Source of the DNA: a virus
IMG/VR virus record: IMGVR_UViG_3300044608_002890
Reading direction: 5' to 3' (one strand)
Length of the DNA: 64,000 nucleotides
Shown one piece after another: positions 23,950-40,935 of the stretch. Below the pieces are notes generated by a model. The model was not told the DNA's origin and ran no database searches. It saw only the letters and a program-made list of their open reading frames with translations. Each line of letters begins with the position of its first letter. Position 1 is the first letter of the stretch. Position numbers and translations under genes: made by a program.

Positions 23950-26169
23950 ATGGAAAACCGAGGTATTCTAGCCCGTCTCATGGCTGTGGAGAACATTACA
24001 GTCGAACATCGCAACATCGAAACTGCTAGTTTCGATGTACTAAATCGTGTGCTCACCCTTCCGACCTGGAAGGCCATGAGCCCCGAGCTCTATGACATGT
24101 TGAGAGCTCATGAAGTTGGTCATGCTCTGGAGACGCCTGCACAGGGTTGGCATGGTACGGTCATTGCTGATCGACGCCTAAAAAGTTTCCTCAACGTAGT
24201 CGAAGATGCTCGCATTGAACGTTTGATCAAGAATCGTTTTCCTGGTCTGCGTCCTAGTTTCGTCAAAGGCTACAAGGAATTGTACGACCAAGACTTTTTT
24301 GGTACGGCCAATAAAAAACTAGACACTCTGCTGCTGGTTGACCGCATCAATTTGCATTTCAAGATTGGCAGTCATCTAAATGTTCCCTTTGACGACTACG
24401 AACAGACCATTGTCGATCGTGTAGCACAAGCTCGTACCTGGGATGATGTTGTGGCCCTGGCCAAGGAAATCTATGACTTCGATGCCGAAGAGCTCAAGCG
24501 TCAAATCGAAGAAAGTCTTGATGCTCAACGCATGCTTTCGGATGGTTTGGGTGATTTGGAATACGACGAAGATGCCGAAGGCCTAGAATCCGAAGAAGAA
24601 GCCGAAGGCGAAACTTCCGATGAACGCCACAAGGTTGGCGGCGATGGTGCCAGTGGTAATGTACATACTCCTGGTCGCAAGGTACTAGATGATTGGTATG
24701 AGTTTAGAAGCGAAACTGATGGTCCAGAAAGCATGACCGACACCATATTCAGACAACGCGAAACAGAACTGCTGGATGAAAAAACTCTGCCCAGAATCTA
24801 TGTTGACGTTCCAACGGCTAACCTAGACAACATCATTGTTCCGCATAAAGTCGTAGCCGATCAATTTAAATTTGTTGCTCTGGAAGGCGCAGAAATTGAC
24901 CAGCATCTCAAGAACAACTTGAAATTTCCAGAGTACAAGGCAGACTTCATGTTGCGCAACAGTAGATTTGTTGATCACATGGTGCGCGAATTCGAGATCA
25001 AACGCAATGCTCGTCAGATGGCCAGAGCCGGCAGTGCCAAGACAGGTGCATTGAACCTCAAGAAGGTACATCAATACAAGTTGACCGATGACCTGTTCCA
25101 ACGGCTAACAGTTGTACCCAAAGGCAAGAATCATGGCATGATCATGATGTTTGATCAGAGCGGCAGCATGGGCGAATACTATGGCCAGACTTTGGAACAG
25201 ATAGTTGTACTCAGCATGTTCTGTCGTAAGATTAATGTACCATTCCATGTCTATGGGTTTACCGACAATACCGATCATCTTCCCAACAACCAAAGATATG
25301 TTGAGCGTGCAAGTTTCTCAAGCAACGTTGGTGAAATTGCTTTCCATGGTCGGAATTATTTTACTCTGCGCGAATATTTTTCACATACACAGACATCAAC
25401 AGAATTCAAAGCCATGGTGGACAGAGTTTTGATATTGGCTGCTAGTTGGCGTAGGCGTAGTAGCTACATGGTTAGCATGTTGCCCTTGAGCGAACGTCTG
25501 TGTGGTACTCCCTTGAACGAAGCCATTGCCAGTCTCATAGAAATGGTTCCGGCCTTCAAAAAAGCTCATAGGTTGGACATTGTAAACACCATTCTGCTTA
25601 CCGATGGTGAAAGCAACAATGCTCTGAGTTCTTTTGTTGCCAATACAGATACCACTGAAAATTCACGACCCAAGACCGCAAACTATGTACATCGTTATGC
25701 TGGCTCAACTTATCTTTGCTTTAGGCACAAGGTCAGCAAATTAGAAGTGCAGACTTTGACCCATCACGACAATCGTGATGCAAGAACTACTGCGGCCTTG
25801 CTGCGGTTGATGTCCTCAATTACGGGTGCCCGTACCATTGGCTACTTTATTTCCGAAGGACACCGCAATCGTTTGCGTGAATGGTACAAAAGCAATCATG
25901 AACTATCCAATCCTAATTCCGAAGAAACTTTTGCCGAGTCAGCCGCTCTTGAAATTAGAAAACATGGTTATTGGTTATCCAAGGATGAACTGTTGACTGG
26001 TTACAAGAACTATTTCAGAGTAAGCGGTAAGTTCCTGGACTTCAAAGAAGAATCGTTGGAAGTTGATAGTGCAAATACCAAGGATCTTCGCAAGGCATTT
26101 GCCAAGTTACATGGTGACAAACGCAAGCATCGTTTACTTCTTAGTAATTTTATTGAGCAGATTGCTTGA
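23950..26169 (+). CDS. Metallopeptidase-vWA protein (CobT-like partner of a MoxR ATPase)
   Basis: N-terminal AHEVGH and NVVEDARIE; acidic linker; MIDAS-like MFDQSGSM, GTPLNEAI, LLTDGES. Confidence 0.82.
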   Translation: MENRGILARLMAVENITVEHRNIETASFDVLNRVLTLPTWKAMSPELYDMLRAHEVGHALETPAQGWHGTVIADRRLKSFLNVVEDARIERLIKNRFPGLRPSFVKGYKELYDQDFFGTANKKLDTLLLVDRINLHFKIGSHLNVPFDDYEQTIVDRVAQARTWDDVVALAKEIYDFDAEELKRQIEESLDAQRMLSDGLGDLEYDEDAEGLESEEEAEGETSDERHKVGGDGASGNVHTPGRKVLDDWYEFRSETDGPESMTDTIFRQRETELLDEKTLPRIYVDVPTANLDNIIVPHKVVADQFKFVALEGAEIDQHLKNNLKFPEYKADFMLRNSRFVDHMVREFEIKRNARQMARAGSAKTGALNLKKVHQYKLTDDLFQRLTVVPKGKNHGMIMMFDQSGSMGEYYGQTLEQIVVLSMFCRKINVPFHVYGFTDNTDHLPNNQRYVERASFSSNVGEIAFHGRNYFTLREYFSHTQTSTEFKAMVDRVLILAASWRRRSSYMVSMLPLSERLCGTPLNEAIASLIEMVPAFKKAHRLDIVNTILLTDGESNNALSSFVANTDTTENSRPKTANYVHRYAGSTYLCFRHKVSKLEVQTLTHHDNRDARTTAALLRLMSSITGARTIGYFISEGHRNRLREWYKSNHELSNPNSEETFAESAALEIRKHGYWLSKDELLTGYKNYFRVSGKFLDFKEESLEVDSANTKDLRKAFAKLHGDKRKHRLLLSNFIEQIA

Positions 26170-26194
26170 CAGTCGAAGAAATTCGTGCTAGAAT
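26166..26194 (+). promoter_or_regulatory. Sigma70-like early promoter with extended -10
   Basis: TTGACA-17 bp-TAGAAT (GTGCTAGAATAGC); -35 overlaps the preceding stop codon. Confidence 0.75.
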
Positions 26195-26220
26195 AGCATT
26201 ACATATATCATGGAGCCTGT

Positions 26221-27402
26221 ATGAAATACACTGATCTTAGCAAAAAGTCCCTGGTTGAAAAGCTTCTTTCGGACAATGGTCCCAGGGTCGATCGCCGTAC
26301 CATCGAAGCCGCAGCCCAGGCCATGGGCTTGCCTTTTCCCAGATTCATCATCGACAACAACAATCTTAAGGTTGGTCGTGGCATTTGGGATCTTGGTAAT
26401 TTTGATCCCGCTGTCCCTGCACCTGTTGCTAGTTATGAGCAACTAGCTGCACCAGCCCTGGCTGCTTCGGTTACGGCCATTGAGACTGTGCGCCAAAAGC
26501 GACTCATGAATGAGTTTGTTGATCTAGTTCCCGAAGAAGATGCTAACTTTGTTAGCCATGGCTTCTTCAGGGACCTTACTCAGATCATTCGCAGCAAGGA
26601 TTTCTTTCCGGTGTTCATTACGGGCCTGAGCGGCAATGGCAAAACCAGCATGGTTGAGCAGGTATGTGCTCGCCTAAAACGCGAAATGTTTCGTGTGAAC
26701 ATCAGCATTGAGACCGACGAAGACGATCTCATTGGTGGTGCTACGCTGGTGGATGGTAACGTTGTATATCGTGAAGGTCCAGTGTTGACTGCCATGCGTC
26801 GTGGTGCAGTGTTGTTGCTTGACGAAGTCGATCGTGGCAGCAACAAGTTGCTTTGCTTGCAGAGTGTGCTAGAAGGTAAGTCCTACCTGAATAAAAAGAC
26901 TGGTGAAGTAGTTCGTCCAGCTCCGGGCTTTACGGTGGTTGCCACAGCCAATACCAAGGGTCGTGGTACTGAAGATGGCAAGTACATTGCTGCGCAGATC
27001 CTGGACGAAGCATTCCTGGAGCGTTTCAGCATCACAGTCGAGCAAGAATATGCTGAACCCAAGGTAGAGAAAAAGATAGTCATGAACTACATGGCTAAAT
27101 ACAACATATCAGATGAAGATTTTGCTTCGAAGCTTGTGGCTTGGGCCGATATCATTCGCCGTACTCATTCCGAAGGCGGTGTGGATGAAATTATTAGTAC
27201 CCGCCGTCTGGTGGATGTGGTCAAGACCTTCAGTAAGTTCAATGATCGTAAAAAAGCCATTGAGCTCTGTACCAACCGTTTCGATGAAGAAACCAAGTTA
27301 GCCTTCCGTGAACTGTATGCCAAATTGGAAGCTCCTCCGGTCCCCGAAGAAGTTGCTCCAGCAGCTCCTTCTGTAGACCCCAGTGTAGAGATTCCTTTCT
27401 AA
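26221..27402 (+). CDS. cobS: MoxR-family AAA+ ATPase (CobS-like of T4-like phages)
   Basis: Walker A GLSGNGKT, DEDDLIGG, Walker B LLLDEVD, ATANTKGRG, LDEAFLERF, ISTRRLV. Confidence 0.85.
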   Translation: MKYTDLSKKSLVEKLLSDNGPRVDRRTIEAAAQAMGLPFPRFIIDNNNLKVGRGIWDLGNFDPAVPAPVASYEQLAAPALAASVTAIETVRQKRLMNEFVDLVPEEDANFVSHGFFRDLTQIIRSKDFFPVFITGLSGNGKTSMVEQVCARLKREMFRVNISIETDEDDLIGGATLVDGNVVYREGPVLTAMRRGAVLLLDEVDRGSNKLLCLQSVLEGKSYLNKKTGEVVRPAPGFTVVATANTKGRGTEDGKYIAAQILDEAFLERFSITVEQEYAEPKVEKKIVMNYMAKYNISDEDFASKLVAWADIIRRTHSEGGVDEIISTRRLVDVVKTFSKFNDRKKAIELCTNRFDEETKLAFRELYAKLEAPPVPEEVAPAAPSVDPSVEIPF

Positions 27403-27410
27403 GGAGTATT

Positions 27411-28127
27411 ATGCAAAGTCTTAAGAATGATAAACATGTTCTGACGGTCATCACGCCCACCATTGGGCGTGATATTTTGGATCGTCAGATTGAGAGCATT
27501 GATGCACAGACCGTAGCCGGTCAAATTTTTCACCTCATCATGTGGGATGAAAAGCGAATCGATGCAGGCATAGACCCCATGTCCTACAACGGTCCCAATC
27601 GTTACAGCATGGTCTTGCCCTGGGGGTTGGGACGGTACAAAGGAGCTCCAGGATCTAGTTTGAGAGCCGTAGCACTCATGGCTGCTAATACTACTTGGGT
27701 AACATTCGCTGACGATGATGTAGTATGGCGACCGACGCATGCTGAAAGCATGCTTAGAGCTGCCAACGGCCATCATTGGGCCGCTTGTCTGCGTCACATC
27801 TATGCACCAGGATCAGGTACCAGATTCCAAGAACAAGGGCGTGGTGAATATCTGGGCATAGACAGATTTGAGAGTGTGGGCGATGATCCAAATCGCAACG
27901 TACCCTATGAAATGATAGATAATAATTGCCTGATGTTCAATCGCATTCTGGGTGTGCATGCTGCACATCTGTATCGCCTGATCGAAGGTCCTGGTGATGA
28001 CCGACACTTTTATGCCTTCATGAAGCAAAATGCCGGACCCTTGGCACGTACCAACGAAGCCACCATCGAACATACATGCCCAGACCATCTCATAGACTTC
28101 TTTAGTCAAAACTGCAGCAAGGAATAG
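27411..28127 (+). CDS. Glycosyltransferase family 2-like (GT-A)
   Basis: VITPTIGR, WVTFADDDV (DxD), IDNNCLM, GDDR. Confidence 0.75.
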   Translation: MQSLKNDKHVLTVITPTIGRDILDRQIESIDAQTVAGQIFHLIMWDEKRIDAGIDPMSYNGPNRYSMVLPWGLGRYKGAPGSSLRAVALMAANTTWVTFADDDVVWRPTHAESMLRAANGHHWAACLRHIYAPGSGTRFQEQGRGEYLGIDRFESVGDDPNRNVPYEMIDNNCLMFNRILGVHAAHLYRLIEGPGDDRHFYAFMKQNAGPLARTNEATIEHTCPDHLIDFFSQNCSKE

Positions 28128-28129
28128 AC

Positions 28130-28840
28130 ATGTCCAACAAATACATTTGCTATAGCTTCTGGGGAGAAGACGAGCGTTTCAGTCTAGGCGCAGTTAAAAA
28201 TGCCGAACTAGCTCGTACACATCTGCCAGACTGGCAGGTCATCATGTATCATGATGACACTGTTCCCACCAAGTATATTCGTATACTTAACAACATGAGT
28301 CATGTAGAGGTTCGCAACATAGCCACCATAGATCCAGGCTATAAGATGGTGCACGGAGCATTCTGGCGTTTCTTGCCCATGTTTGAACGCGAAGGCCATT
28401 TTATCATGCGAGACACCGACAGCCGACTGACCAAGCGTGAAGCAAGGGCCGTTGAAGAATGGGTGAGCTCGGATCGTACCTTTCATGTAATTCGCGATCA
28501 TGAAGCCCATTATGAATGGCCAGTATTGGCAGGCATGTGGGGCATCAAAGGTGTAGTACATCCTTTCTTTCATGAACAAATGAAAAAGTATTGGCTGGCC
28601 AACTTTTATACAGTTGACCAGGTTTATTTGGCACAGGTACTTTGGCCAGCAGTCCAGCAGAGTGTGCTGGTTCATGGCATGCGTGAAGGTGGTTGGTTTG
28701 CCGACACCAGAAAGAATGTTGGCTACAATTTTGTTGGTGAGGGTTGGTATGAAGATGACACACCAATCTATAGCTTTGACATGCCCAGCCGTAAGTTCAA
28801 CAAGGGGCAAGAGAAAAACGTCTATAATTCGAGTCTGTAA
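28130..28840 (+). CDS. Glycosyltransferase-like protein (GT-A-type RDTDS motif)
   Basis: ICYSFWG, FWRFLP, MRDTDSR, FHVIRDH, LAGMWG, VDQVYL. Confidence 0.55.
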   Translation: MSNKYICYSFWGEDERFSLGAVKNAELARTHLPDWQVIMYHDDTVPTKYIRILNNMSHVEVRNIATIDPGYKMVHGAFWRFLPMFEREGHFIMRDTDSRLTKREARAVEEWVSSDRTFHVIRDHEAHYEWPVLAGMWGIKGVVHPFFHEQMKKYWLANFYTVDQVYLAQVLWPAVQQSVLVHGMREGGWFADTRKNVGYNFVGEGWYEDDTPIYSFDMPSRKFNKGQEKNVYNSSL

Positions 28841-29529
28841 TGTTCAAAAGATTATTAGTCTACCATCATTTAGGTCTTGGTGACCATTTTATTTGCAACG
28901 CACTTGTACATCATTTTGCGGAAAACTTTGCCGAAGAAATATGGTTGCCAGTCAAAGAAGCTAATCTACCAACTGTCAAGCATCTCTATGAAGATCATGA
29001 AAACATCAAAATCATAAGTACTTCGGAAAATGAATATCATAAAGAGATTCTTGGTATAAATAACCTCAGCACCCAATACAATGTACCTTTGCTTAAAATT
29101 GGTTTCAATGGCGACAACAGCAAAGAATTTGATCGCTCATTCTATGACCAAGTTGGTTTGGATTTTGACCTTAGATGGGCCGGATTCAAAGCTCCGTATA
29201 ATGATCAATCAGCCATGGATTTCTACAATGAGATCATAGGCAATGGTGAGCCCTATGCTCTGGTTCATGATACTGGCAGCATAGGATCTTTCAATTTGAA
29301 TCTAGATACAAATCTACGCATCATTAAAATACAGGCTGGTCTCACCGACAGTCTTTTGAACTGGAAATCTATCATAGAAAATGCCGAAGAAATTCATTGC
29401 ATAGACAGCAGCGTAATTCATCTTGTTGATAGTCTTAGGGTTGGGGCTTCTAGGTTAGTATTTCATGATGTTGGTCGACCAAGTAAATTCAACTTATTTT
29501 ATGAGTGGGAGCGAAAGACATATAAATGA
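28840..29529 (+). CDS. Putative GT-B glycosyltransferase-like protein
   Basis: HHLGLGDHF N-terminal motif and AEEIHCIDSS C-terminal motif resembling GT9/fucosyltransferase-type folds. Confidence 0.5.
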   Translation: MFKRLLVYHHLGLGDHFICNALVHHFAENFAEEIWLPVKEANLPTVKHLYEDHENIKIISTSENEYHKEILGINNLSTQYNVPLLKIGFNGDNSKEFDRSFYDQVGLDFDLRWAGFKAPYNDQSAMDFYNEIIGNGEPYALVHDTGSIGSFNLNLDTNLRIIKIQAGLTDSLLNWKSIIENAEEIHCIDSSVIHLVDSLRVGASRLVFHDVGRPSKFNLFYEWERKTYK

Positions 29530-30248
29530 TGAACATTGTCATACCCATGGCCGGACTGGGCAGTAGATTTGCCGAAGCTGGTTTTAGTATCCCCAAGCCG
29601 CTGATTCCGGTCAATGGCGAAGCAATGATCAGCAAAGCAGTTAAAAGCCTAAACCTACAGGGCCAGTATTATTTTATACTGTCAAGTAATTCTTATACCA
29701 AGCACATAATAGAAGTACTTGAAAGCATCGTCAAAAAACCGCATTTTTGCATCATAGATTATGTTACAAACGGTCCAGCTTCCTCAGTGCAGTTGGTTAG
29801 CGAACATATAAATAATTCTGATGAACTAGTTGTTGCCAACTGTGACCAGATCATGACCTGGAACAGTGCAGCATTTTTACATAATGCCAGACTATACGAT
29901 GGTTGTTTAGTGACCTATCATTCGGATACTACTAAAAATAGTTATGCTAAACTCAATGCCAAGGGTCTAGTAACTGAAGTCCGAGAAAAACAAGTTATTA
30001 GTAACGTAAGTCTTAACGGTATCCACTATTGGAAGCAGGGTCGGTATTTTTGCGACTCATATGAAGCCATGGTCCAAAATAATGATACAGCACCTAATGG
30101 TGAGTTTTATGTAGGACCTTCGTACAACTATATGATTAGAAATAACAGGATAGTAGGTATCTATCATATTCCTAACGAACAACATCATCCAGTAGGTGTG
30201 CCCGATGATCTTAAAGCATATCTACAGTTTGAGAATAACACCTTATGA
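29526..30248 (+). CDS. Sugar/polyol-phosphate nucleotidyltransferase (NTP_transferase)
   Basis: IVIPMAGLGSRF..AGF..PKPLI, GPASSV, NCDQ, NGEFYVGP. Confidence 0.85.
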   Translation: MMNIVIPMAGLGSRFAEAGFSIPKPLIPVNGEAMISKAVKSLNLQGQYYFILSSNSYTKHIIEVLESIVKKPHFCIIDYVTNGPASSVQLVSEHINNSDELVVANCDQIMTWNSAAFLHNARLYDGCLVTYHSDTTKNSYAKLNAKGLVTEVREKQVISNVSLNGIHYWKQGRYFCDSYEAMVQNNDTAPNGEFYVGPSYNYMIRNNRIVGIYHIPNEQHHPVGVPDDLKAYLQFENNTL

Positions 30249-30260
30249 AAGAAGGAGAAG

Positions 30261-30953
30261 ATGGCAACAGATCTTGAAAAAATTGAAGCGTTTTTAGTCT
30301 ATGAGGTTGGAATTTGTCCAACCAATGACAATCATTTTGGTGGCAATCCAGAAGCACAGGCACAGTTAAATTTAAAAATTCAACAGCGTCCAGCTGAGCT
30401 AGCCAATTTGATTTATTTTCTTTTTAACAGAAAAGCGGCCGGTGAAAAGCTAGACTATTATGCTGAGATAGGTGCCTGTTCTGGTGGTACTACATTCTCC
30501 ATAAACAAATTTTTAAACTTCAAAGAGTTGTTGATTATTGATGACGGTGGAGCTGAAGCCGTTCATTATATCAATGCACGTGGCAATCAACTAAGAAGTC
30601 AAAATCTAGGTACAATTCCTCGCATAGAAATCATAGGTTCCTCTGCTGAACAGCGTGTCATTGACATGAGCAAACATATAGCTAGCAAACAACTATATGA
30701 CATTCTTTTTATTGATGGTGATCATAGCTATGAAGGTGTAAAAAATGATACTATTAATTACCTATCCATAGTTAGGTCTGGCGGTTATGTAATTTTTCAT
30801 GACACTAACCACATCAAAGGCATCATGGATTGGATGCAAGAAATACCATCGAGAGTTCCTGAATTAGAATTTGTTAATAAATTTAGTTTTAAAGACTCAT
30901 ACACAGATAGATTTCCAACTGGTATAGGAATTACTATTTTCAGAAAGTCATAG
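30261..30953 (+). CDS. Class I SAM methyltransferase (Methyltransf_24-like)
   Basis: EIGACSGGT, LFIDGDHSYEGVKND, GGYVIFHD. Confidence 0.85.
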   Translation: MATDLEKIEAFLVYEVGICPTNDNHFGGNPEAQAQLNLKIQQRPAELANLIYFLFNRKAAGEKLDYYAEIGACSGGTTFSINKFLNFKELLIIDDGGAEAVHYINARGNQLRSQNLGTIPRIEIIGSSAEQRVIDMSKHIASKQLYDILFIDGDHSYEGVKNDTINYLSIVRSGGYVIFHDTNHIKGIMDWMQEIPSRVPELEFVNKFSFKDSYTDRFPTGIGITIFRKS

Positions 30954-30954
30954 C

Positions 30955-31278
30955 ATGCAAGTAATGAAGTTGACAGATTTTACTAGAGGATGGTTCATAG
31001 GAAATTTTGACCCTAGTATTTTAAAAACCAAAGATTTCGAAGTTGGCGTTCTCACGCACAAAAAACATGAAGTATGGCCCAGACACTATCATAAAATTGG
31101 TACAGAGTATAATGTATTAGTTTCAGGAAGTATGACAGTGGCCAATACCCTTATTGGTCCTGGTGATGTATTTGTGTTTAATCCCCTGGACGTTGCTGAT
31201 CCTGTTTTTCATGAAGATTGTATTGTGGTATGCGTAAAGGTACCCAGTATACCTGGAGATAAGTATGAACTTGTTTAA
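30955..31278 (+). CDS. Cupin-fold protein
   Basis: RGWFIGNF, HYHKIGTEYNVLVSG, GDVF; overlaps the RLP start. Confidence 0.75.
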   Translation: MQVMKLTDFTRGWFIGNFDPSILKTKDFEVGVLTHKKHEVWPRHYHKIGTEYNVLVSGSMTVANTLIGPGDVFVFNPLDVADPVFHEDCIVVCVKVPSIPGDKYELV

Positions 31279-32458
31279 AGAAAAGAGTGAAATAGATTCA
31301 TCCAAATACTTTATAGCTACCTATGCTGCTATTTCAAAAACTACGCTCAAAGAATTGGCCTGGGATATAGCGGTTGGACAAAGTGTAGGTAACCCCAATG
31401 TTAGAAGTAAATGGGAAGACGATGCGTTATTTGAAACACATAGCTGTCTCATCCTAAACAATCAACAAGAGCTTGAAAACACTAACCGTGGCATCATAGA
31501 GATTGCTTTTCCGGTAGCCAACATAGACCTAGAGACCGACGGCGTTAATCATTTAATCTGTCAGCTCATGGGTGGGCATACTGACATAGATATCGTTCAG
31601 AGATGCAGGCTCATTGATCTAGACTTGCCCGATTGCATGAAAACAGTTTTCAAAGGACCTAAATTTGGTCTTTCAGGGCTAAGAAAAATAACTGGTAATT
31701 ATAACAAGCCCTTGTTGGGCGGCATAATTAAACCTAAAATTGTACATAAGAAACATGTGCTTGAAGATATGGTCAGAGCACTCATAGATGGAGGTGTCGA
31801 TTTCATCAAAGAAGATGAAATCATGAGCAGTGTACCTCATCTTCCTCTGGAGCAACGTGTAGACATAGTTGCCAATCTACTTGCCAAAGCAAACTATAAG
31901 CTGGCCTATTGTCATACCATCAATTGCGATCCGCATGATTTACAAAATCGCATCAACACAGTTGTTGAATTGGGCGGCAATGGGGTTCATATCAACATTT
32001 TGGGTGGCCTGGGTACGTATCATAGTGTGCGAAAAATGGATGTACCTATTTATATGCATCTGCAAAGTAGTGGTCAAAAGGTCCTGACTAATATTAATAA
32101 TCCTTATAGCATAAGCTGGCCTGTGGTCTGCCAACTTGCTACTCTAATGGGAGTAGATACCATACAGACTGGTATGATTGGTGGATATAGCAATGACGAT
32201 CCAGCAGAGATTTTAAAATGTTTGAACATTCTCAGAGCAGGCAATACTGTTCCAGCACTTAGTTGTGGGTTTCATCCAGGCATGGTAGACTGGGTGACCA
32301 AACAGGTAGGTAATGATTATTTGGCCAATAGCGGTAGTGCCATACATGGCCATCCTGGCGGAACTCTGGCCGGCACCAAAGCCATGCGCCAGGCCATAGA
32401 CAATGATCACAATACTGAATATGCTGATGCTATTAGGACCTGGGGGCTGGTGCAATAA
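31265..32458 (+). CDS. RuBisCO-like protein (form IV RLP)
   Basis: GPKFGLSG, GGIIKPK, GGVDFIKEDE (carbamylated Lys plus Mg ligands), SCGFHPG, AIHGHPGG. Confidence 0.88.
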   Translation: MNLFKEKSEIDSSKYFIATYAAISKTTLKELAWDIAVGQSVGNPNVRSKWEDDALFETHSCLILNNQQELENTNRGIIEIAFPVANIDLETDGVNHLICQLMGGHTDIDIVQRCRLIDLDLPDCMKTVFKGPKFGLSGLRKITGNYNKPLLGGIIKPKIVHKKHVLEDMVRALIDGGVDFIKEDEIMSSVPHLPLEQRVDIVANLLAKANYKLAYCHTINCDPHDLQNRINTVVELGGNGVHINILGGLGTYHSVRKMDVPIYMHLQSSGQKVLTNINNPYSISWPVVCQLATLMGVDTIQTGMIGGYSNDDPAEILKCLNILRAGNTVPALSCGFHPGMVDWVTKQVGNDYLANSGSAIHGHPGGTLAGTKAMRQAIDNDHNTEYADAIRTWGLVQ

Positions 32459-32460
32459 TC

Positions 32461-33183
32461 ATGCTAAAAGACAGACTAACGAACTACATCTACAGCGGTC
32501 AAGAGAGCGTAGCTAGCCAAAAGATGCTACAGGTTCTGAATCATATTCAGGATCTTGATGTTAAATGTATTTTAGATGTTGGCAGCTGGCATCTAAAACA
32601 AAGCATGGAATTCTTAAATGCTTTTCCTGATGCTCAGGTACATGCCTTTGAACCTGCGCCCGATAATTTCAACCTCTGTAAAAATACTCACATGTACATG
32701 GATCCACAGAACCGGGATCGCTTAAAGGTATACAATGTGGCCTTAGGCGATGTCAATGGAACCATAGATTTTTATGTTATTGATGACACCAAGGGCGACA
32801 GCAACGCAGGTGCTGCCAGTAAGTTTAAATTCAAGCCTGGAATGAATGGCAGTTTTTATAACCAAAATTGGATTCAAAAACAAGTAACAGTTAGTCAGTA
32901 TAGATTAGATGATTTTGTTCCCAAGTACATTAATATGCCTGTGGATATTTTGTGGATTGATGTACAGGGCGCAGAGTTGTTTGCTTTTAAAGGTGCTGAA
33001 AGGACCTTGAAGGATACTAAAATGATTTTTACTGAGGTTGGTCTAGAAGCCTACTACGAAGGTCAGAGTCTTAAACCACAGATTGATGAATATTTAAACA
33101 GTTTAGGATTCGAAGAAATTAAAGAAGCGTTTGAGCTGAACGGCTTTGCATACGAAGGCAACGCAGTGTATAAAAGAATATGA
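32461..33183 (+). CDS. FkbM-family methyltransferase
   Basis: LDVGS, HAFEP, VALGD, DILWIDVQGAEL, IFTEV. Confidence 0.88.
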   Translation: MLKDRLTNYIYSGQESVASQKMLQVLNHIQDLDVKCILDVGSWHLKQSMEFLNAFPDAQVHAFEPAPDNFNLCKNTHMYMDPQNRDRLKVYNVALGDVNGTIDFYVIDDTKGDSNAGAASKFKFKPGMNGSFYNQNWIQKQVTVSQYRLDDFVPKYINMPVDILWIDVQGAELFAFKGAERTLKDTKMIFTEVGLEAYYEGQSLKPQIDEYLNSLGFEEIKEAFELNGFAYEGNAVYKRI

Positions 33184-33659
33184 AAATTATAGCACACCGA
33201 GGCAATACACAGGGCCCTAACACACAAGAAGAAAACTATCCTGATTACATACAAAATGCCATTAGGCTAGGGTTTGATGTAGAGGTAGATCTTTGGGTAC
33301 AGGACAACGAACTTTGGTTAGGCCATGATGAACCTACTTATAAAATATATAAAGGTTGGCTCAACGAACGACATAATCGATTATGGATACACTGTAAGAA
33401 CCTAGATGCCCTAGAGTATTGCAGCATGTACAAAGATTTAAATTTCTTTGCGCACGATTCGGATCCCTATGTTGTAACCAGTAAAGGTTATATTTGGGCC
33501 TATCCTGGTCATTATGGTAAAACTGCTACAGTCATGGTCATGCCCGAATATGTGTTTCAGTTAGCACAGGCTACAGCTAGATTGCGCACCCACTATGGTA
33601 TCTGTACAGATTATGCTCAAAGGGTAAAAGATGAAACGGTCAGTAATAATACGAGGTAG
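33180..33659 (+). CDS. Glycerophosphodiester phosphodiesterase / PI-PLC-like protein
   Basis: IIAHRGN, EN, GFDVEVDLW, LGHD, WIHCKN, GICTDY. Confidence 0.75.
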   Translation: MKIIAHRGNTQGPNTQEENYPDYIQNAIRLGFDVEVDLWVQDNELWLGHDEPTYKIYKGWLNERHNRLWIHCKNLDALEYCSMYKDLNFFAHDSDPYVVTSKGYIWAYPGHYGKTATVMVMPEYVFQLAQATARLRTHYGICTDYAQRVKDETVSNNTR

Positions 33660-34431
33660 TCTGGGTAACAGTAAAAATCCAACTAATTTTACCCAGCAAG
33701 TCGTAGACAGCATCAGAAGCTGGCATAATGATGAAATAATACTTAGCACCTGGGAACATCAGTTAGACCAAGCCCGACATATACTGGGCATAGACAAGAT
33801 TATACTTAGCAAAGACCCTGGTCATGATCCTGGCCATACCATGCGTCAATACATTACCTATGAGGCAGGACTCAACGTAGCTCAAGGTGAACAAATACTA
33901 GTAACTCGAACTGACATGCTGCATTTTAGAAATTTGTTTGAATTCATAGGCAGCAATGTGGCTCGTACACCAGAAAACATGGGGGCATTTACACACAAAT
34001 TGGTCATAGGCAACATGATGACCATTAGGCCCGATAGTTCAGAGATTGTTAGAACCTTTAGACCCAGTGACTGGTTTCAGTGCGGTTGGGCTCAGGACAT
34101 GCGCAAATGGTGCGGCATTGGTCAGGAAATTCGTAGTATAAATTGGAATCTATATGCTGATCTGTATGCCAGACAGCAGACCTGTACTGAAAAATTGTGG
34201 TTTAGTTTGGTACTGCAGAAGTATTTTAACAATGATCTCACCTGGAATAATACTGCTGAGTTCGATGGGTTAGCCTGGCATGCCATTAATGATAACTTTT
34301 TAGTTTTAGATAACATAAGTACAGCCCGCACCATGAATCTAAACTGGACATTTCAACCACAAAGATTGCACTGTTACTACACAGAAAAACTTTATAACAT
34401 GAAACTTCAAGAACTATGTACAAGGAATTAA
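33631..34431 (+). CDS. WavE-like LPS synthesis protein
   Basis: SVIIRG, ILSTWE, DPG, VTRTDM, SDWFQCG. Confidence 0.55.
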   Translation: MKRSVIIRGSLGNSKNPTNFTQQVVDSIRSWHNDEIILSTWEHQLDQARHILGIDKIILSKDPGHDPGHTMRQYITYEAGLNVAQGEQILVTRTDMLHFRNLFEFIGSNVARTPENMGAFTHKLVIGNMMTIRPDSSEIVRTFRPSDWFQCGWAQDMRKWCGIGQEIRSINWNLYADLYARQQTCTEKLWFSLVLQKYFNNDLTWNNTAEFDGLAWHAINDNFLVLDNISTARTMNLNWTFQPQRLHCYYTEKLYNMKLQELCTRN

Positions 34432-34432
34432 C

Positions 34433-35386
34433 ATGAAAGATTTTTTATTTTTTAATTATGATTGGGTAGCAAATAGTACATATTTGTTCAAAAGTTTCGA
34501 AGTGTCTGGTTACAGTTGTGATTTTGTAAATGAACAACAACTCCAATCTTTTGTACCACCATCTCAATATAGGGTAGTTGTTGCTTACCTGCATGAGCCC
34601 TGGCAGATTCCCATAATCAACAGGCTCATGTCTATGTACTTTAAGGATAGTTTCTTTGTACAGCATGATGACACTGACGAAGAACATGTACAACGTTGGT
34701 TTGAAAGATCTCCTGACCTAATCATGCAAAGGGAATTGACTGCTGCAAGCCAGAACCCTTATAATTGTCCTACGTACCCGCAGCATTTTCCCATACCCAG
34801 CATATACCGTGACAACAGCGAAAAGACCTTGGATGTGATGTTCATGGGAACGCCAACTAATCCTGGTAGAGTTCGATTTGTGCAGAAGTTGTTGGAACTT
34901 AGTACTGGTCCGCTTAAACATCTTAACTGGGGACTGCAGTATAGCAAAGAAAGAGCCAAGGGACGTAATCCAGATTTGTTTATAAAAGCAGCAAATTCAA
35001 CAAAGATTGGATTGAACTTTCCTGGTAACAGTCGTGATCAATGGAGGACCTGGGAGTTAGCCAGTGCTGGTTGCGCTATACTTATGCCCCAGAGTCCACT
35101 GCTAAGTATCAGACCCGATCATCAGCCCTTTGAAGAATATGTTAGGTTTAAAGATGATTTGTCTGATCTAGAAGAAAAAATTGTTTGGCTTTTGGAAGCA
35201 GATAGGTGGAAGGACTGGGGCAATAAGGCCAAACAAAGCTATGATTTATTTCATACACCGGAAAAATGCTTTGAGCACTATCATGATTGCGTACTAAGGC
35301 ATGCTCCGGTTCAGCCACGTACTATCATTCCACATAGTGCTGAAAGCTACTTTGACGCCTGGCGTAAAAACCCTAACAACTACTGA
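34433..35386 (+). CDS. Glycosyltransferase (GT-B, CgeB/Glyco_trans_1_2-like)
   Basis: DVMFMGT...R, KIGLNFPG, RTWELASAGCAIL, DLEEKIVWLL. Confidence 0.65.
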   Translation: MKDFLFFNYDWVANSTYLFKSFEVSGYSCDFVNEQQLQSFVPPSQYRVVVAYLHEPWQIPIINRLMSMYFKDSFFVQHDDTDEEHVQRWFERSPDLIMQRELTAASQNPYNCPTYPQHFPIPSIYRDNSEKTLDVMFMGTPTNPGRVRFVQKLLELSTGPLKHLNWGLQYSKERAKGRNPDLFIKAANSTKIGLNFPGNSRDQWRTWELASAGCAILMPQSPLLSIRPDHQPFEEYVRFKDDLSDLEEKIVWLLEADRWKDWGNKAKQSYDLFHTPEKCFEHYHDCVLRHAPVQPRTIIPHSAESYFDAWRKNPNNY

Positions 35387-39924: not shown

Positions 39925-40935
39925 ATGATTAAAACTGCGCTTGTGTATGGTGGTGGCGGATTCATTGGTAGTCATCTGGTTCGTAAACTCAGAGCTGAAA
40001 ATTACTTCATTCGAGTCGTTGATCTAAAAAAACCTGAATTCAGCGATTCTCCGGCCGATGATTTTAAGGTCGGGGATCTTACAAATTACGATCTTGTCAG
40101 CCACTCGTTGGTCTTGCCCGCAGGATTAAACACTGAATTCAATGATTTTGATGAAATCTATCAGCTGGCTGCAGACATGGGCGGAGCAGGTTATATCTTT
40201 ACTGGCGATAATGATAGTGAAGTCATGACCAACAGTGCTGCCATCAACATCAATCTTTGCAAGGCCGTAGCCGAAAGAAATATGGCCAGGGGTAAAGTAC
40301 ATTCACGTATTTTTTATAGCAGTAGCGCCTGTATCTACCCCGAACATAATCAAATGGATCCCAACAATCCTAATTGTGTAGAGGATTCAGCCTATCCTGC
40401 CAACCCTGATAGCGAATATGGTTGGGAAAAACTTTTCAGCGAAAGACTTTTCTTGGCCTATAATCGCAATCACGGCATACCAGTACGCATTGCTCGTTAT
40501 CACAATGTATTTGGTCCCGAAGGCACCTGGACCGGTGGTCGTGAAAAAGCACCCGCAGCCATCTGCAGAAAGGTAGCTGAATGCACCACAGGTACCATAG
40601 ATGTCTGGGGCGATGGCGAACAGACACGTAGCTTCATGTACGTAGACGAATGTGTTGAAGGCACGCTCAGACTCATGCGTTCGGACTTTACGGGCCCTGT
40701 GAATCTGGGTAGCACTGAGATGCTAAGCATCAATCAATTAGTTGATATGGTCGCAGGCATTGCTGGCAAATCCATTACCAAAAATCACATTCCAGGACCT
40801 TTGGGTGTCAGGGGTAGGGTCAGCGACAATCGCCTCATCCAGGAAAAACTTGGTTGGGCACCTAGTGCGCCCTTGCAAGCAGGCATGGCCAAAACCTATG
40901 AGTGGGTGCATGAACAAGTTCAACGTGCAAATTGA
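39925..40935 (+). CDS. NAD-dependent epimerase, GDP-mannose 3,5-epimerase-like
   Basis: GGGGFIGSHL, QLAADMGGAGYI, SSSACIYPE, PDSEYGWEKLFSE, GREKAPAAICRKVA, PLGVRGR. Confidence 0.9.
   Translation: MIKTALVYGGGGFIGSHLVRKLRAENYFIRVVDLKKPEFSDSPADDFKVGDLTNYDLVSHSLVLPAGLNTEFNDFDEIYQLAADMGGAGYIFTGDNDSEVMTNSAAININLCKAVAERNMARGKVHSRIFYSSSACIYPEHNQMDPNNPNCVEDSAYPANPDSEYGWEKLFSERLFLAYNRNHGIPVRIARYHNVFGPEGTWTGGREKAPAAICRKVAECTTGTIDVWGDGEQTRSFMYVDECVEGTLRLMRSDFTGPVNLGSTEMLSINQLVDMVAGIAGKSITKNHIPGPLGVRGRVSDNRLIQEKLGWAPSAPLQAGMAKTYEWVHEQVQRAN

Follow-up and report, generated by a model that had tools for sequence, protein, structure and literature searches.

We analyzed a 64,000-nucleotide stretch of DNA (the window) from an uncultured T4-like lake phage (IMG/VR record IMGVR_UViG_3300044608_002890) and found six coupled genes that probably represent a variant of a widespread cassette making a nucleotide-activated carbohydrate for a glycan. 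Within it, a RuBisCO-like protein (RLP) would isomerize or epimerize a ketose phosphate. We observed directly the gene identities, the residue pattern of the RLP, the linkage of the genes, and an exclusive alternation between the RLP and a class II aldolase; from these, we infer the type of reaction, the class of substrate, and a glycan as the target.

A coupled six-gene cassette in a T4-like phage

The six genes lie on the plus strand at positions 29526 to 33659 of the window, with open reading frames (ORFs) exactly where the initial annotation had placed them, and the Pfam matches agree with the gene order that it gave. They encode a sugar- or polyol-phosphate nucleotidyltransferase (29526..30248), a Methyltransf_24/CmcI-like SAM methyltransferase (30261..30953; Pfam E value of 1.1e-11), a 107-amino-acid (aa) cupin (30955..31278), the 397-aa RLP (31265..32458), an FkbM-family methyltransferase (32461..33183; Pfam E value of 4.6e-24 and 82.9 bits to TIGR01444), and a 159-aa miniature GDPD-fold phosphodiesterase-like protein (mini-GDPD; 33180..33659). 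Adjacent cassette genes overlap or are separated by gaps of 1 to 12 nt, and the 3' end of the cupin ORF overlaps the start of the RLP gene by 14 nt. Downstream on the same strand are genes for a WavE-like putative transferase (33631..34431; Pfam WavE E value of 2.7e-12) and then a GT-B-type glycosyltransferase (34433..35386; Glyco_trans_1_2, 27.7 bits against a cut-off of 25), a variable gene found in 9 of 84 RLP loci. Homologues of gp44, gp62, and regA and an hsp20 gene at 36.5 to 39.1 kb mark a genuine phage context, and the replication genes gp45, gp44, and gp62 adjoin the cassette. A megablast search with the cassette found no match among deposited phage genomes.

The RLP keeps a RuBisCO Mg site and probably has a different active site

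The RLP is a member of the RuBisCO large-subunit superfamily (PF00016, 112.2 bits against a cut-off of 30.1, E value of 3.8e-32) and is matched by 99 solved RuBisCO or RLP chains at an E value of ≤1e-3. We called active-site residues from a HMMER alignment to solved RuBisCO/RLP chains and from a MAFFT alignment that included a form I reference. Both alignments bore out the initial manual alignment, in which the protein keeps the KPK lysines and the K-E-D-E Mg site and replaces His294/Arg295, His327, and the loop-6 Lys334. The retained residues are K175 and K177 (IIKPK) and K201, D203, and E204 (FIKEDE); the replacements are H294 to Q and R295 to S (MHLQS), H327 to Q (TIQTG), K334 to Y (GGY), and also E60 to G. 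The HMM alignment also places a G where N123 would be. The RLP thus does not have the full residue set of carboxylating RuBisCOs (forms I to III), since E60, N123, H294, R295, H327, and K334 are all changed.

The catalytic core was kept in all 50 family members examined, with K175, K177, K201, D203, E204, S379, and G381 invariant across sequences diverging to 35% identity. The changes of H294 to Q, K334 to Y, and G380 to C were likewise fixed in 50 of 50. An alignment of 31 phage RLPs had a mean column identity of 68%. A retained core together with Q294, Y334, and C380 fixed in every member suggests that purifying selection maintains an active site of another kind. On its residues, we predict that the RLP is an intact RuBisCO relative incapable of CO2 fixation.

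That the RLP is nevertheless a true CO2-fixing RuBisCO, carried as a photosynthesis-type auxiliary gene, would suit the PF00016 match and the retained Mg site, but we consider this extremely improbable. E60, H294, and K334 are lost family-wide and R295 and H327 are lost in the subclade of this phage, G stands at the N123 position, and the score against the form III equivalog (rubisco_III in NCBIfam) is 158.4 bits against a cut-off of 497.45; small-subunit, phosphoribulokinase, and carboxysome genes were not seen nearby. It is also very unlikely that the protein is a noncatalytic scaffold or binding protein that merely keeps the RuBisCO fold. Several canonical residues are indeed replaced, and the activity of the RLP family is not known, but the seven core positions are invariant down to 35% identity and the replacements at 294, 334, and 380 are invariant too, as expected of a working, different active site.

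The initial annotation had assigned the RLP to an uncharacterized pathway, and the protein does fall outside the characterized clades. Its NCBIfam scores (127 to 158 bits against cut-offs of 409 to 700) reach no characterized enzyme (MtnW, OiaX, or form III), and a quick tree separated it from MtnW, from OiaX-type RLPs, and from form I. This tree left out DeepYkrW, IV-Photo, and IV-AMC references, so the RLP may have a distant tie to the Rhodospirillum rubrum isomerase clade; two rows with branch lengths of 10 (L105 and L246), probably misextracted ORFs, were ignored. We know of no characterized close homologue of the RLP, the cupin, or the mini-GDPD.

The protein collection holds 2392 relatives of the RLP, the best 120 of which are all 60 to 82% identical and about 397 aa long, and 177 IMG/VR stretches encode relatives. 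A tblastn search of 50,697 deposited phage genomes gave no match, and hence there is no cultured phage model for the RLP. The matches from a plasmid search were all below 31% identity and so served as outgroups only. A protein from a Beckwithbacteria MAG (L096) is 46% identical to the RLP and lies inside its family in the tree.

A phage RLP as such is not new. Jaffe et al. (2019, Mol Biol Evol; PMC6389311) described about 80 phage "form IV-like" RuBisCO-related proteins, for which the available part of the text gives neither a function nor a gene context. Like our RLP, these are phage-borne and have key residues that diverge from canonical form IV; some were assigned to Myoviridae, and they group with Beckwithbacteria outside the classical RLP clades. 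The RLP fits this phage/Beckwithbacteria clade, matched by its description and not by the sequences of that paper. Relative to that description, what is new here is the set of conserved partners, the occurrence in cellular genomes such as those of SAR11 and an actinomycete, and the alternation with a class II aldolase.

A conserved core of nucleotidyltransferase, RLP, and mini-GDPD

We counted neighboring genes in 47 RLP loci with full flanks or in a wider set of 84 RLP loci. The nucleotidyltransferase was present in 45 of the 47 full-flank loci, the mini-GDPD in 39, the cupin in 36, the Methyltransf_24 methylase in 21, and the FkbM methylase in 18. A WavE-like/DUF7796-type protein was found in 32 of the 47 when clusters joined by hhalign, which was run on selected pairs of neighbor clusters, were pooled. 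The conserved core is thus the nucleotidyltransferase, the RLP, and the mini-GDPD, with the cupin close to core; the two methylases are frequent accessories and, like the glycosyltransferases, vary by locus.

The gene set recurs in a Pelagibacter chromosome, in Nonomuraea rosea, in CPR bacteria, and in DPANN archaea, and linkage holds at 35 to 39% RLP identity in Elusimicrobia, Nonomuraea, and Sphingobacteriales. The trio of nucleotidyltransferase, cupin, and RLP that had been singled out at the start is therefore kept together across phages, bacteria, and archaea. The Pelagibacter locus has GT9/heptosyltransferase, CTP_transf_3/cytidylyltransferase, and HAD-nucleotidyltransferase genes as neighbors, and the Nonomuraea island has extra adenosylhomocysteinase-like and deoxynucleoside-kinase-like genes. 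The initial annotation had embedded the RLP in a nucleotide-sugar or glycan module. The neighbors and the Pelagibacter locus support this setting, but the methylases and glycosyltransferases vary between loci and are not part of the conserved core, and nothing in the analysis shows the branched sugar that had been proposed. The cassette of this window has no kinase or phosphatase that would define the entry or exit of the pathway.

The core nucleotidyltransferase belongs to its family by both NTP_transf_3 (36.5 bits against 27) and NTP_transferase (28.8 bits against 21.2). The closest solved chain is 4evw, an NDP-sugar pyrophosphorylase of Vibrio cholerae (E value of 9.6e-14), and an NCBIfam search reached no equivalog.

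The 107-aa protein carries the motif G-X5-H-X-H-X4-E-X6-G, with H44, H46, and E51 invariant in 43 homologues, 38 of which match Cupin_7 and 22 Cupin_2. Its AF2 model is all beta (pLDDT of 95.6) and is matched by 165 PDB cupins at an E value of ≤1e-3, with the mini-cupin phosphomannose isomerases 7zvm/7zvy and the "sugar phosphate isomerase" cupins 3i7d/3l2h as the best Foldseek matches. Motif and model together identify the protein as a cupin superfamily member with motif 1 on a predicted double-stranded beta-helix and a putative metal site; a histidine-bearing motif 2 is not apparent in the 107-aa protein. In phage Bellamy, a cupin homologue comes after a nucleotidyltransferase-RpiB fusion, suggesting that pentose phosphates are involved.

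At 159 aa, the mini-GDPD is about 60% of the size of a normal GDPD (a TIM barrel of about 240 aa). The GDPD-type HR...EN...E-x-D...HD motif is invariant in 50 sequences (H6, R7, E18, N19, E35, D37, H49, H71, and K73). A profile of the family matched PDB GDPDs with an E value of 2e-4 over the first 53 residues only, and the AF2 model (pLDDT of 95.6) matched GDPDs in Foldseek with a probability of 0.95 to 1.0 and a TM score of 0.45 to 0.61. Pfam GDPD (PF03009) matched 2 of the 50 members, with an E value of 0.03. The family is represented in metagenomes by >7,800 unnamed clusters, and mini-GDPD loci occur in at least 587 viral stretches.

The RLP alternates with a class II aldolase

Cassettes with the mini-GDPD and nucleotidyltransferase carried the RLP in 108 loci and a class II aldolase with a mini-HAD protein in 53 and never both, although the loci counted were sampled with an anchor bias from related phages and cannot be taken as independent events. 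When 80 viral loci were anchored on the GDPD, 53 had the aldolase, 4 had the RLP, and none had both; none of 104 RLP-anchored loci had the aldolase. The two kinds of cassette have in common the nucleotidyltransferase, the mini-GDPD, WavE-like/DUF7796 proteins, a 236-aa protein family, and both methylase families. Sister cassettes with a class II aldolase and a small phosphatase in place of the RLP suggest that the RLP probably reshapes a keto-sugar phosphate. A phosphoribulokinase-like kinase had no Pfam match among ten representative neighbors and was also absent from the window's cassette.

The aldolase-type cassette occurs in the cultured cyanomyoviruses S-SM2 (SSM2_204-209) and Bellamy (genes 206-214), within large glycan islands with many glycosyltransferases. 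These cassettes have a mini-GDPD at 39 to 45% identity, a related nucleotidyltransferase, WavE-like/DUF7796 proteins, the same methylase families, and a similar layout, with a transferase-like gene some 450 nt beyond the start of the GDPD. They differ from ours in having no RLP, in having Aldolase_II and a 103-aa HAD-like protein directly upstream of the mini-GDPD, and in a nucleotidyltransferase with a tandem double domain.

There are precedents for pentulose phosphates being handled by either a class II aldolase-family enzyme or a RuBisCO/RLP (PMC9700705, PMC5893883). Archaea use either Rubisco or a HAD phosphatase with a Ru1P aldolase (PMC9700705), and Rhodopseudomonas palustris metabolizes methylthioadenosine by an RLP1 or an Ald2 route (PMC5893883).

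Comparison with characterized RLPs

MtnW, the 2,3-diketo-5-methylthiopentyl-1-phosphate enolase of form IV-YkrW (2oek, 2zvi), is among the best-scoring solved relatives of the RLP (E value of 5.7e-30 over residues 17 to 379). Both proteins have K175, K201, D203, E204, and the phosphate loops. MtnW, however, has I or V at 177, A at 294, and S or N at 334, whereas the phage RLP family has K, Q, and Y. The RLP misses the MtnW NCBIfam cut-offs (155.8 against 409 and 127.4 against 513.6), and eight Bacillota MtnW-type sequences formed a separate clade with starred branches between them and the RLP. No mtn genes were seen near the RLP in the cassettes.

OiaX, the 3-oxo-isoapionate-4-phosphate decarboxylase of IV-NonPhoto, is an RLP whose substrate is a branched or acid sugar phosphate, the precedent behind the branched sugar proposed in the initial annotation; it is 29 to 30% identical to the phage RLP. 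It keeps H294, R295, and K334 and has no K177. The RLP scores 133.1 bits against the OiaX cut-off of 700 and lies in a separate clade. OiaX is catabolic and adjoins four-carbon acid sugar kinase and aldo/keto reductase genes.

In the MTA-isoprenoid shunt (PMC5893883), RLP1, a 5-methylthioribulose-1-phosphate isomerase of the R. rubrum type, acts alongside a small cupin on a pentulose 1-phosphate, and the class II aldolase-family enzyme Ald2 is an alternative in the same organism. The phage cassette has the same pairing of RLP and cupin, a likeness drawn from the published description, but the shunt serves salvage and lacks a nucleotidyltransferase, a methylase, and a glycosyltransferase.

A proposed pathway and its alternatives

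The carbamylated-lysine Mg site and both active-site lysines are kept, and the RLP therefore probably carries out proton abstraction. We propose that its substrate is a ketose monophosphate, likely a pentulose phosphate, which loses the proton beside its carbonyl, and that the RLP reprotonates the resulting enediolate to give an isomer or epimer; CO2 would play no part. By interconverting aldose and ketose, the cupin probably provides or withdraws the ketose form, and the mini-GDPD may make or cut a phosphodiester at some step. The nucleotidyltransferase would activate the product, which could be an NDP-sugar, a polyol phosphate, or an NMP-ketose. One or two SAM methylases would then decorate it, and WavE-like and other transferases would attach it, most likely to a host or virion surface glycan.

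The genes could instead belong to another kind of pathway. It is unlikely, in our judgment, that the RLP works with the cupin and phosphodiesterase in a module for salvage or catabolism, methionine-salvage-like or for the breakdown of nucleoside-derived pentoses, that recycles host metabolites beside glycan genes that are mere neighbors. Such a module would accord with the RLP-cupin pairing of the MTA-isoprenoid shunt (PMC5893883), with MtnW and form III as the best-scoring solved relatives, and with the adenosylhomocysteinase-like and deoxynucleoside-kinase-like genes of the Nonomuraea island. However, the constant partner is a nucleotidyltransferase, an activating and not a degrading enzyme, the methylases and transferases are interleaved and translationally coupled with the core genes, and we saw no mtnA, mtnP, mtnK, R15P isomerase, or nucleoside phosphorylase gene in the cassettes. 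We give an equally low probability to the idea that the cassette makes a sugar donor for hypermodification of the phage DNA and not for a surface glycan. T4-like phages do glycosylate their own DNA and replication genes adjoin the cassette here, but the same cassette sits amid LPS-type genes in cellular chromosomes and in glycan islands in cultured cyanophages, and it contains no base-modifying enzyme.

Beyond a glycan cassette with a ketose-phosphate RLP, we tentatively suggest a more specific scheme. The RLP branch may be biosynthetic, with ribulose phosphate or another pentulose phosphate as the starting material for a rare phosphorylated keto-sugar or polyol. After nucleotide activation and methylation, this product would enter the surface glycans of SAR11, of CPR/DPANN cells, and of the hosts of many aquatic phages; the RLP would then be a nonhomologous replacement for a class II aldolase/epimerase and phosphatase. 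All RLPs characterized so far, to our knowledge, act in carbon fixation, sulfur salvage, or sugar-acid catabolism. If correct, this scheme would give the RuBisCO fold its first anabolic, glycan-building function and widen its known chemistry, define a new, environmentally abundant sugar, and explain a gene common in aquatic phage metagenomes. It would also identify one constituent of the surface glycans of SAR11 and of those directed by phages, glycans that influence how phages adsorb and how cells are grazed in lakes and oceans. The alternation with class II aldolase offers a concrete handle on the RLP substrate.

Other features of the locus

A CobS-like AAA+ gene with a CbbQ_C domain (26221-27402) was considered as an RLP activase and rejected, because only 2 of 84 RLP loci have such a gene. 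The T4-type late-promoter motif TATAAATA occurs at 29055 and 29807, both within ORFs; its 9 occurrences in the window against 2.7 expected are a weak excess from which expression timing cannot be read.

Three further plus-strand genes precede the cassette. The first, in a variable part of the island, encodes a GT2-like glycosyltransferase (27411..28127; Glycos_transf_2 E value of 3.8e-4, below the cut-off) and is present in 3 of 84 RLP loci. The third encodes a 229-aa protein of no assigned function (28840..29529), found in 10 of 84 RLP loci, with no Pfam match and only viral hypothetical clusters as Atlas matches. Between them lies the gene for the 236-aa protein (28130..28840), which has no Pfam match and has relatives in 10 of the 84 RLP loci and in aldolase-type loci (hhalign 100%). 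Its Atlas neighbors include clusters auto-named "putative Glycosyltransferase" and GT8/Nucleotid_trans clusters at 0.92 to 0.93, an Atlas lead by which it is possibly a GT-A-like glycosyltransferase.

Gene content of the region

The stretch comes from an uncultured T4-like myovirus and carries homologues of the clamp loader proteins gp44 and gp62, regA, and hsp20 at 36.5 to 39.1 kb. Between this block and a gene for a CobS-like AAA+ ATPase with a CbbQ_C domain (26221-27402), plus-strand genes follow one another without a break. Pfam names six of them: a nucleotidyltransferase (29526-30248), a Methyltransf_24 methylase (30261-30953), a 397-amino-acid RuBisCO large-chain homologue (RuBisCO-like protein [RLP]; 31265-32458), an FkbM methylase (32461-33183), a WavE-like protein (33631-34431), and a glycosyltransferase (34433-35386). 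Two small open reading frames (ORFs) without a Pfam match could also be identified. The initial annotation had described an RLP with altered RuBisCO residues inside a nucleotide-sugar module; its gene list was correct, and the observation as a whole was confirmed. T4-type late-promoter-like TATAAATA motifs lie at 29055-29062, within a 229-amino-acid ORF, and at 29807-29814, within the nucleotidyltransferase ORF; the window holds 9 such motifs versus 2.7 expected. CbbQ-type ATPases serve in RuBisCO activation. The CobS-like gene is preceded by one for a 739-amino-acid protein without a Pfam match (both genes, 23950-27402); because only 2 of 84 RLP loci carry this pair, its closeness here looks coincidental.

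The first small ORF (30955-31278) encodes a cupin of 107 amino acids, in which motif 1 is perfect and H44, H46, and E51 are unvarying among 43 homologues; Cupin_7 matches 38 of these 43 family members in Pfam. Its AlphaFold model (pLDDT, 95.6) was nearest to miniature phosphomannose isomerases of Thermococcus and to structural-genomics cupins labeled "sugar phosphate isomerase." The second (33180-33659) encodes a 159-amino-acid protein with the HRG...EN...ExD...GHD signature of glycerophosphodiester phosphodiesterases (GDPDs), unvarying in 50 homologues, at only about 60% of the usual GDPD size. A profile of this mini-GDPD family matched solved GDPDs (E value, 2e-4), and Foldseek matched its model (pLDDT, 95.6) to GDPD barrels with probabilities of 0.95 to 1.0. 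Public metagenomes contain more than 7,800 mini-GDPD clusters at 90% identity, all of them lacking both a Pfam domain and an informative name.

The RLP family and its active site

The RLP scored far under the NCBIfam equivalog cutoffs for form III (158 bits; cutoff, 497), both MtnW models (156 and 127 bits; cutoffs, 409 and 514), and OiaX (133 bits; cutoff, 700). In a quick maximum-likelihood tree, built without DeepYkrW, IV-Photo, and IV-AMC references, well-supported branches set its family apart from eight MtnW-type sequences and from OiaX, S. meliloti and Streptomyces RLPs, and form I, placing it outside the characterized clades sampled. Within the family were 30 viral rows and 18 cellular ones, and two more cellular rows, Elusimicrobia and Nonomuraea, were basal to it; the window RLP fell in a 16-row all-viral clade whose sister clade contains Pelagibacter sequences. 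A plasmid search returned no protein more than 31% identical to the RLP. Jaffe et al. 2019 (PMC6389311) reported roughly 80 proteins from phages as "related to Form IV"; a number of these were from Myoviridae, and they grouped with Beckwithbacteria, had divergent key residues, and were of unknown function. A protein from a Beckwithbacteria metagenome-assembled genome (46% identity) falls within our family, so the two appear to be the same clade, which is already known from the literature. Our literature search found no function for it in later papers. A 273-amino-acid protein in a public collection (P0026), identical to 69% of the window RLP, appears to be a shortened call of the same gene.

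The active site was read by aligning the RLP to solved structures with HMMER and to a form I reference with MAFFT. The KPK lysines and K-E-D-E magnesium site seen earlier were indeed kept (K175, K177, K201, D203, and E204), together with S379 and G381. The reported losses of His294/Arg295, His327, and Lys334 were borne out as H294Q, R295S, H327Q, and K334Y, alongside E60G; the N123 position is G in the HMM alignment. All of the retained residues are unvarying across 50 viral and cellular family members, as are G60, N65, Q294, Y334, and C380. Most members have K (36) or S (12) at position 295, and position 327 is occupied by H (34) or Q (16); S295 and Q327 mark the subclade of the window phage. 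The pattern is that of a working active site predicted to enolize its substrate on a carbamate-Mg center; the sites for the second phosphate and for the CO2 adduct have probably been lost.

Conserved gene linkage

A search of the protein collection found 2,392 RLP relatives, the best 120 of which are about 397 amino acids long and 60 to 82% identical. Among 67 loci with distinct RLPs, 65 had the nucleotidyltransferase, 52 the mini-GDPD, and 48 the cupin. When the count was restricted to loci flanked by 4 kb or more on each side (n = 47), the partners were the nucleotidyltransferase (45), mini-GDPD (39), cupin (36), WavE-like/DUF7796 (32), Methyltransf_24 (21), and FkbM (18), most often in the order nucleotidyltransferase, cupin, RLP, methylase, GDPD, WavE-like. 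The window's own glycosyltransferases are seldom present elsewhere. Core linkage holds to RLP identities as low as 35%.

The core set also occurs in cells. In a complete Pelagibacter chromosome it lies among genes for a heptosyltransferase, a CMP-sugar-type cytidylyltransferase, a HAD-nucleotidyltransferase fusion, and a 2-hydroxyacid dehydrogenase, and it was found further in Elusimicrobia, Verrucomicrobiae, Saccharibacteria, Beckwithbacteria, and Nanoarchaeia. Nonomuraea rosea JCM 17326 (locus L102, 7477-12923) has the mini-GDPD, RLP, cupin, and nucleotidyltransferase together with GT2, adenosylhomocysteinase-like, and deoxynucleoside-kinase-like genes. Genes for a phage-type integrase and a transposase border this cassette, which is therefore a mobile island, and this cultured actinomycete could be a genetic model. 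The nucleotidyltransferase/cupin/RLP trio that the initial annotation had singled out is thus conserved together in viruses and cells.

Possible alternatives are that the cassette is a salvage or catabolic module or supplies a sugar donor for DNA modification, or that the RLP is a noncatalytic protein or a true carboxylase. All four are harder to reconcile with the cellular contexts and the constant presence of the nucleotidyltransferase than is a role in glycan synthesis.

Alternation with a class II aldolase

A search of deposited phage genomes found no RLP in cultured cyanomyoviruses, which carry the mini-GDPD (39 to 45% identity). In Synechococcus phages S-SM2 and Bellamy, an Aldolase_II protein and a 103-amino-acid HAD-like protein (mini-HAD) precede it, downstream of a tandem double nucleotidyltransferase, which accompanies the aldolase-type cassette. 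The S-SM2 protein (522 amino acids, "dN-sugar pyrophosphorylase"; locus L113, 2388-3956) is assigned as such because the window's 240-amino-acid nucleotidyltransferase matches it twice. Bellamy gene 206 (locus L112, 2172-3646) fuses a nucleotidyltransferase to an RpiB-type sugar-phosphate isomerase, with a 106-amino-acid cupin homologue (43% identity) directly 3'. Among 80 viral loci fetched with the mini-GDPD as anchor, 53 had a class II aldolase, 4 had an RLP, and none had both, and no aldolase occurred at 104 RLP-anchored loci; these counts are descriptive and carry no probability, the samples being biased by anchors and relatedness. Both cassette types share the nucleotidyltransferase, mini-GDPD, both methylase families, WavE-like/DUF7796 (hhalign, 99.8%), and a 236-amino-acid family (100%). 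One slot is thus filled by either the RLP, usually with the cupin, or the aldolase with the mini-HAD.

Class II aldolase-family and RuBisCO-family enzymes alike stabilize a metal-bound enediolate of a phosphorylated ketose. The S-SM2 aldolase scored best, under the cutoff, against L-ribulose-5-phosphate 4-epimerase and ribulose-1-phosphate aldolase models, which, with the Bellamy RpiB fusion, points to pentulose phosphates as the likely substrate class. The two families are documented alternatives in other systems: in halophilic archaea, a HAD RuBP phosphatase and ribulose-1-phosphate aldolase take the place of Rubisco in the pentose bisphosphate pathway (PMC9700705), and Rhodopseudomonas palustris has two routes for methylthioadenosine, one through RLP1 and the other through a class II aldolase (Ald2) (PMC5893883). 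From the alternation, these precedents, and the pentulose-phosphate clues, we read the RLP as a putative enolizing isomerase or epimerase that would ready a ketose phosphate, its product then being nucleotide activated, methylated, and passed to a glycan. The presence of the mini-GDPD suggests involvement of a phosphodiester, with a polyol- or sugar-phosphate link, an NMP-ketose donor, and a cyclic phosphate as candidates. The earlier proposal of a biosynthetic pathway to a rare nucleotide sugar was reasonable and is strengthened here, short of proof, and RLP function is now more sharply testable.

Farther downstream, 4.5 kb from the cassette, is a gene of the GDP-mannose-dehydratase/epimerase family (39925-40935). 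Such dehydratase-like genes adjoin the RLP at 19 of the 47 full-flank loci, suggesting that a 6-deoxyhexose route serves the same glycan.
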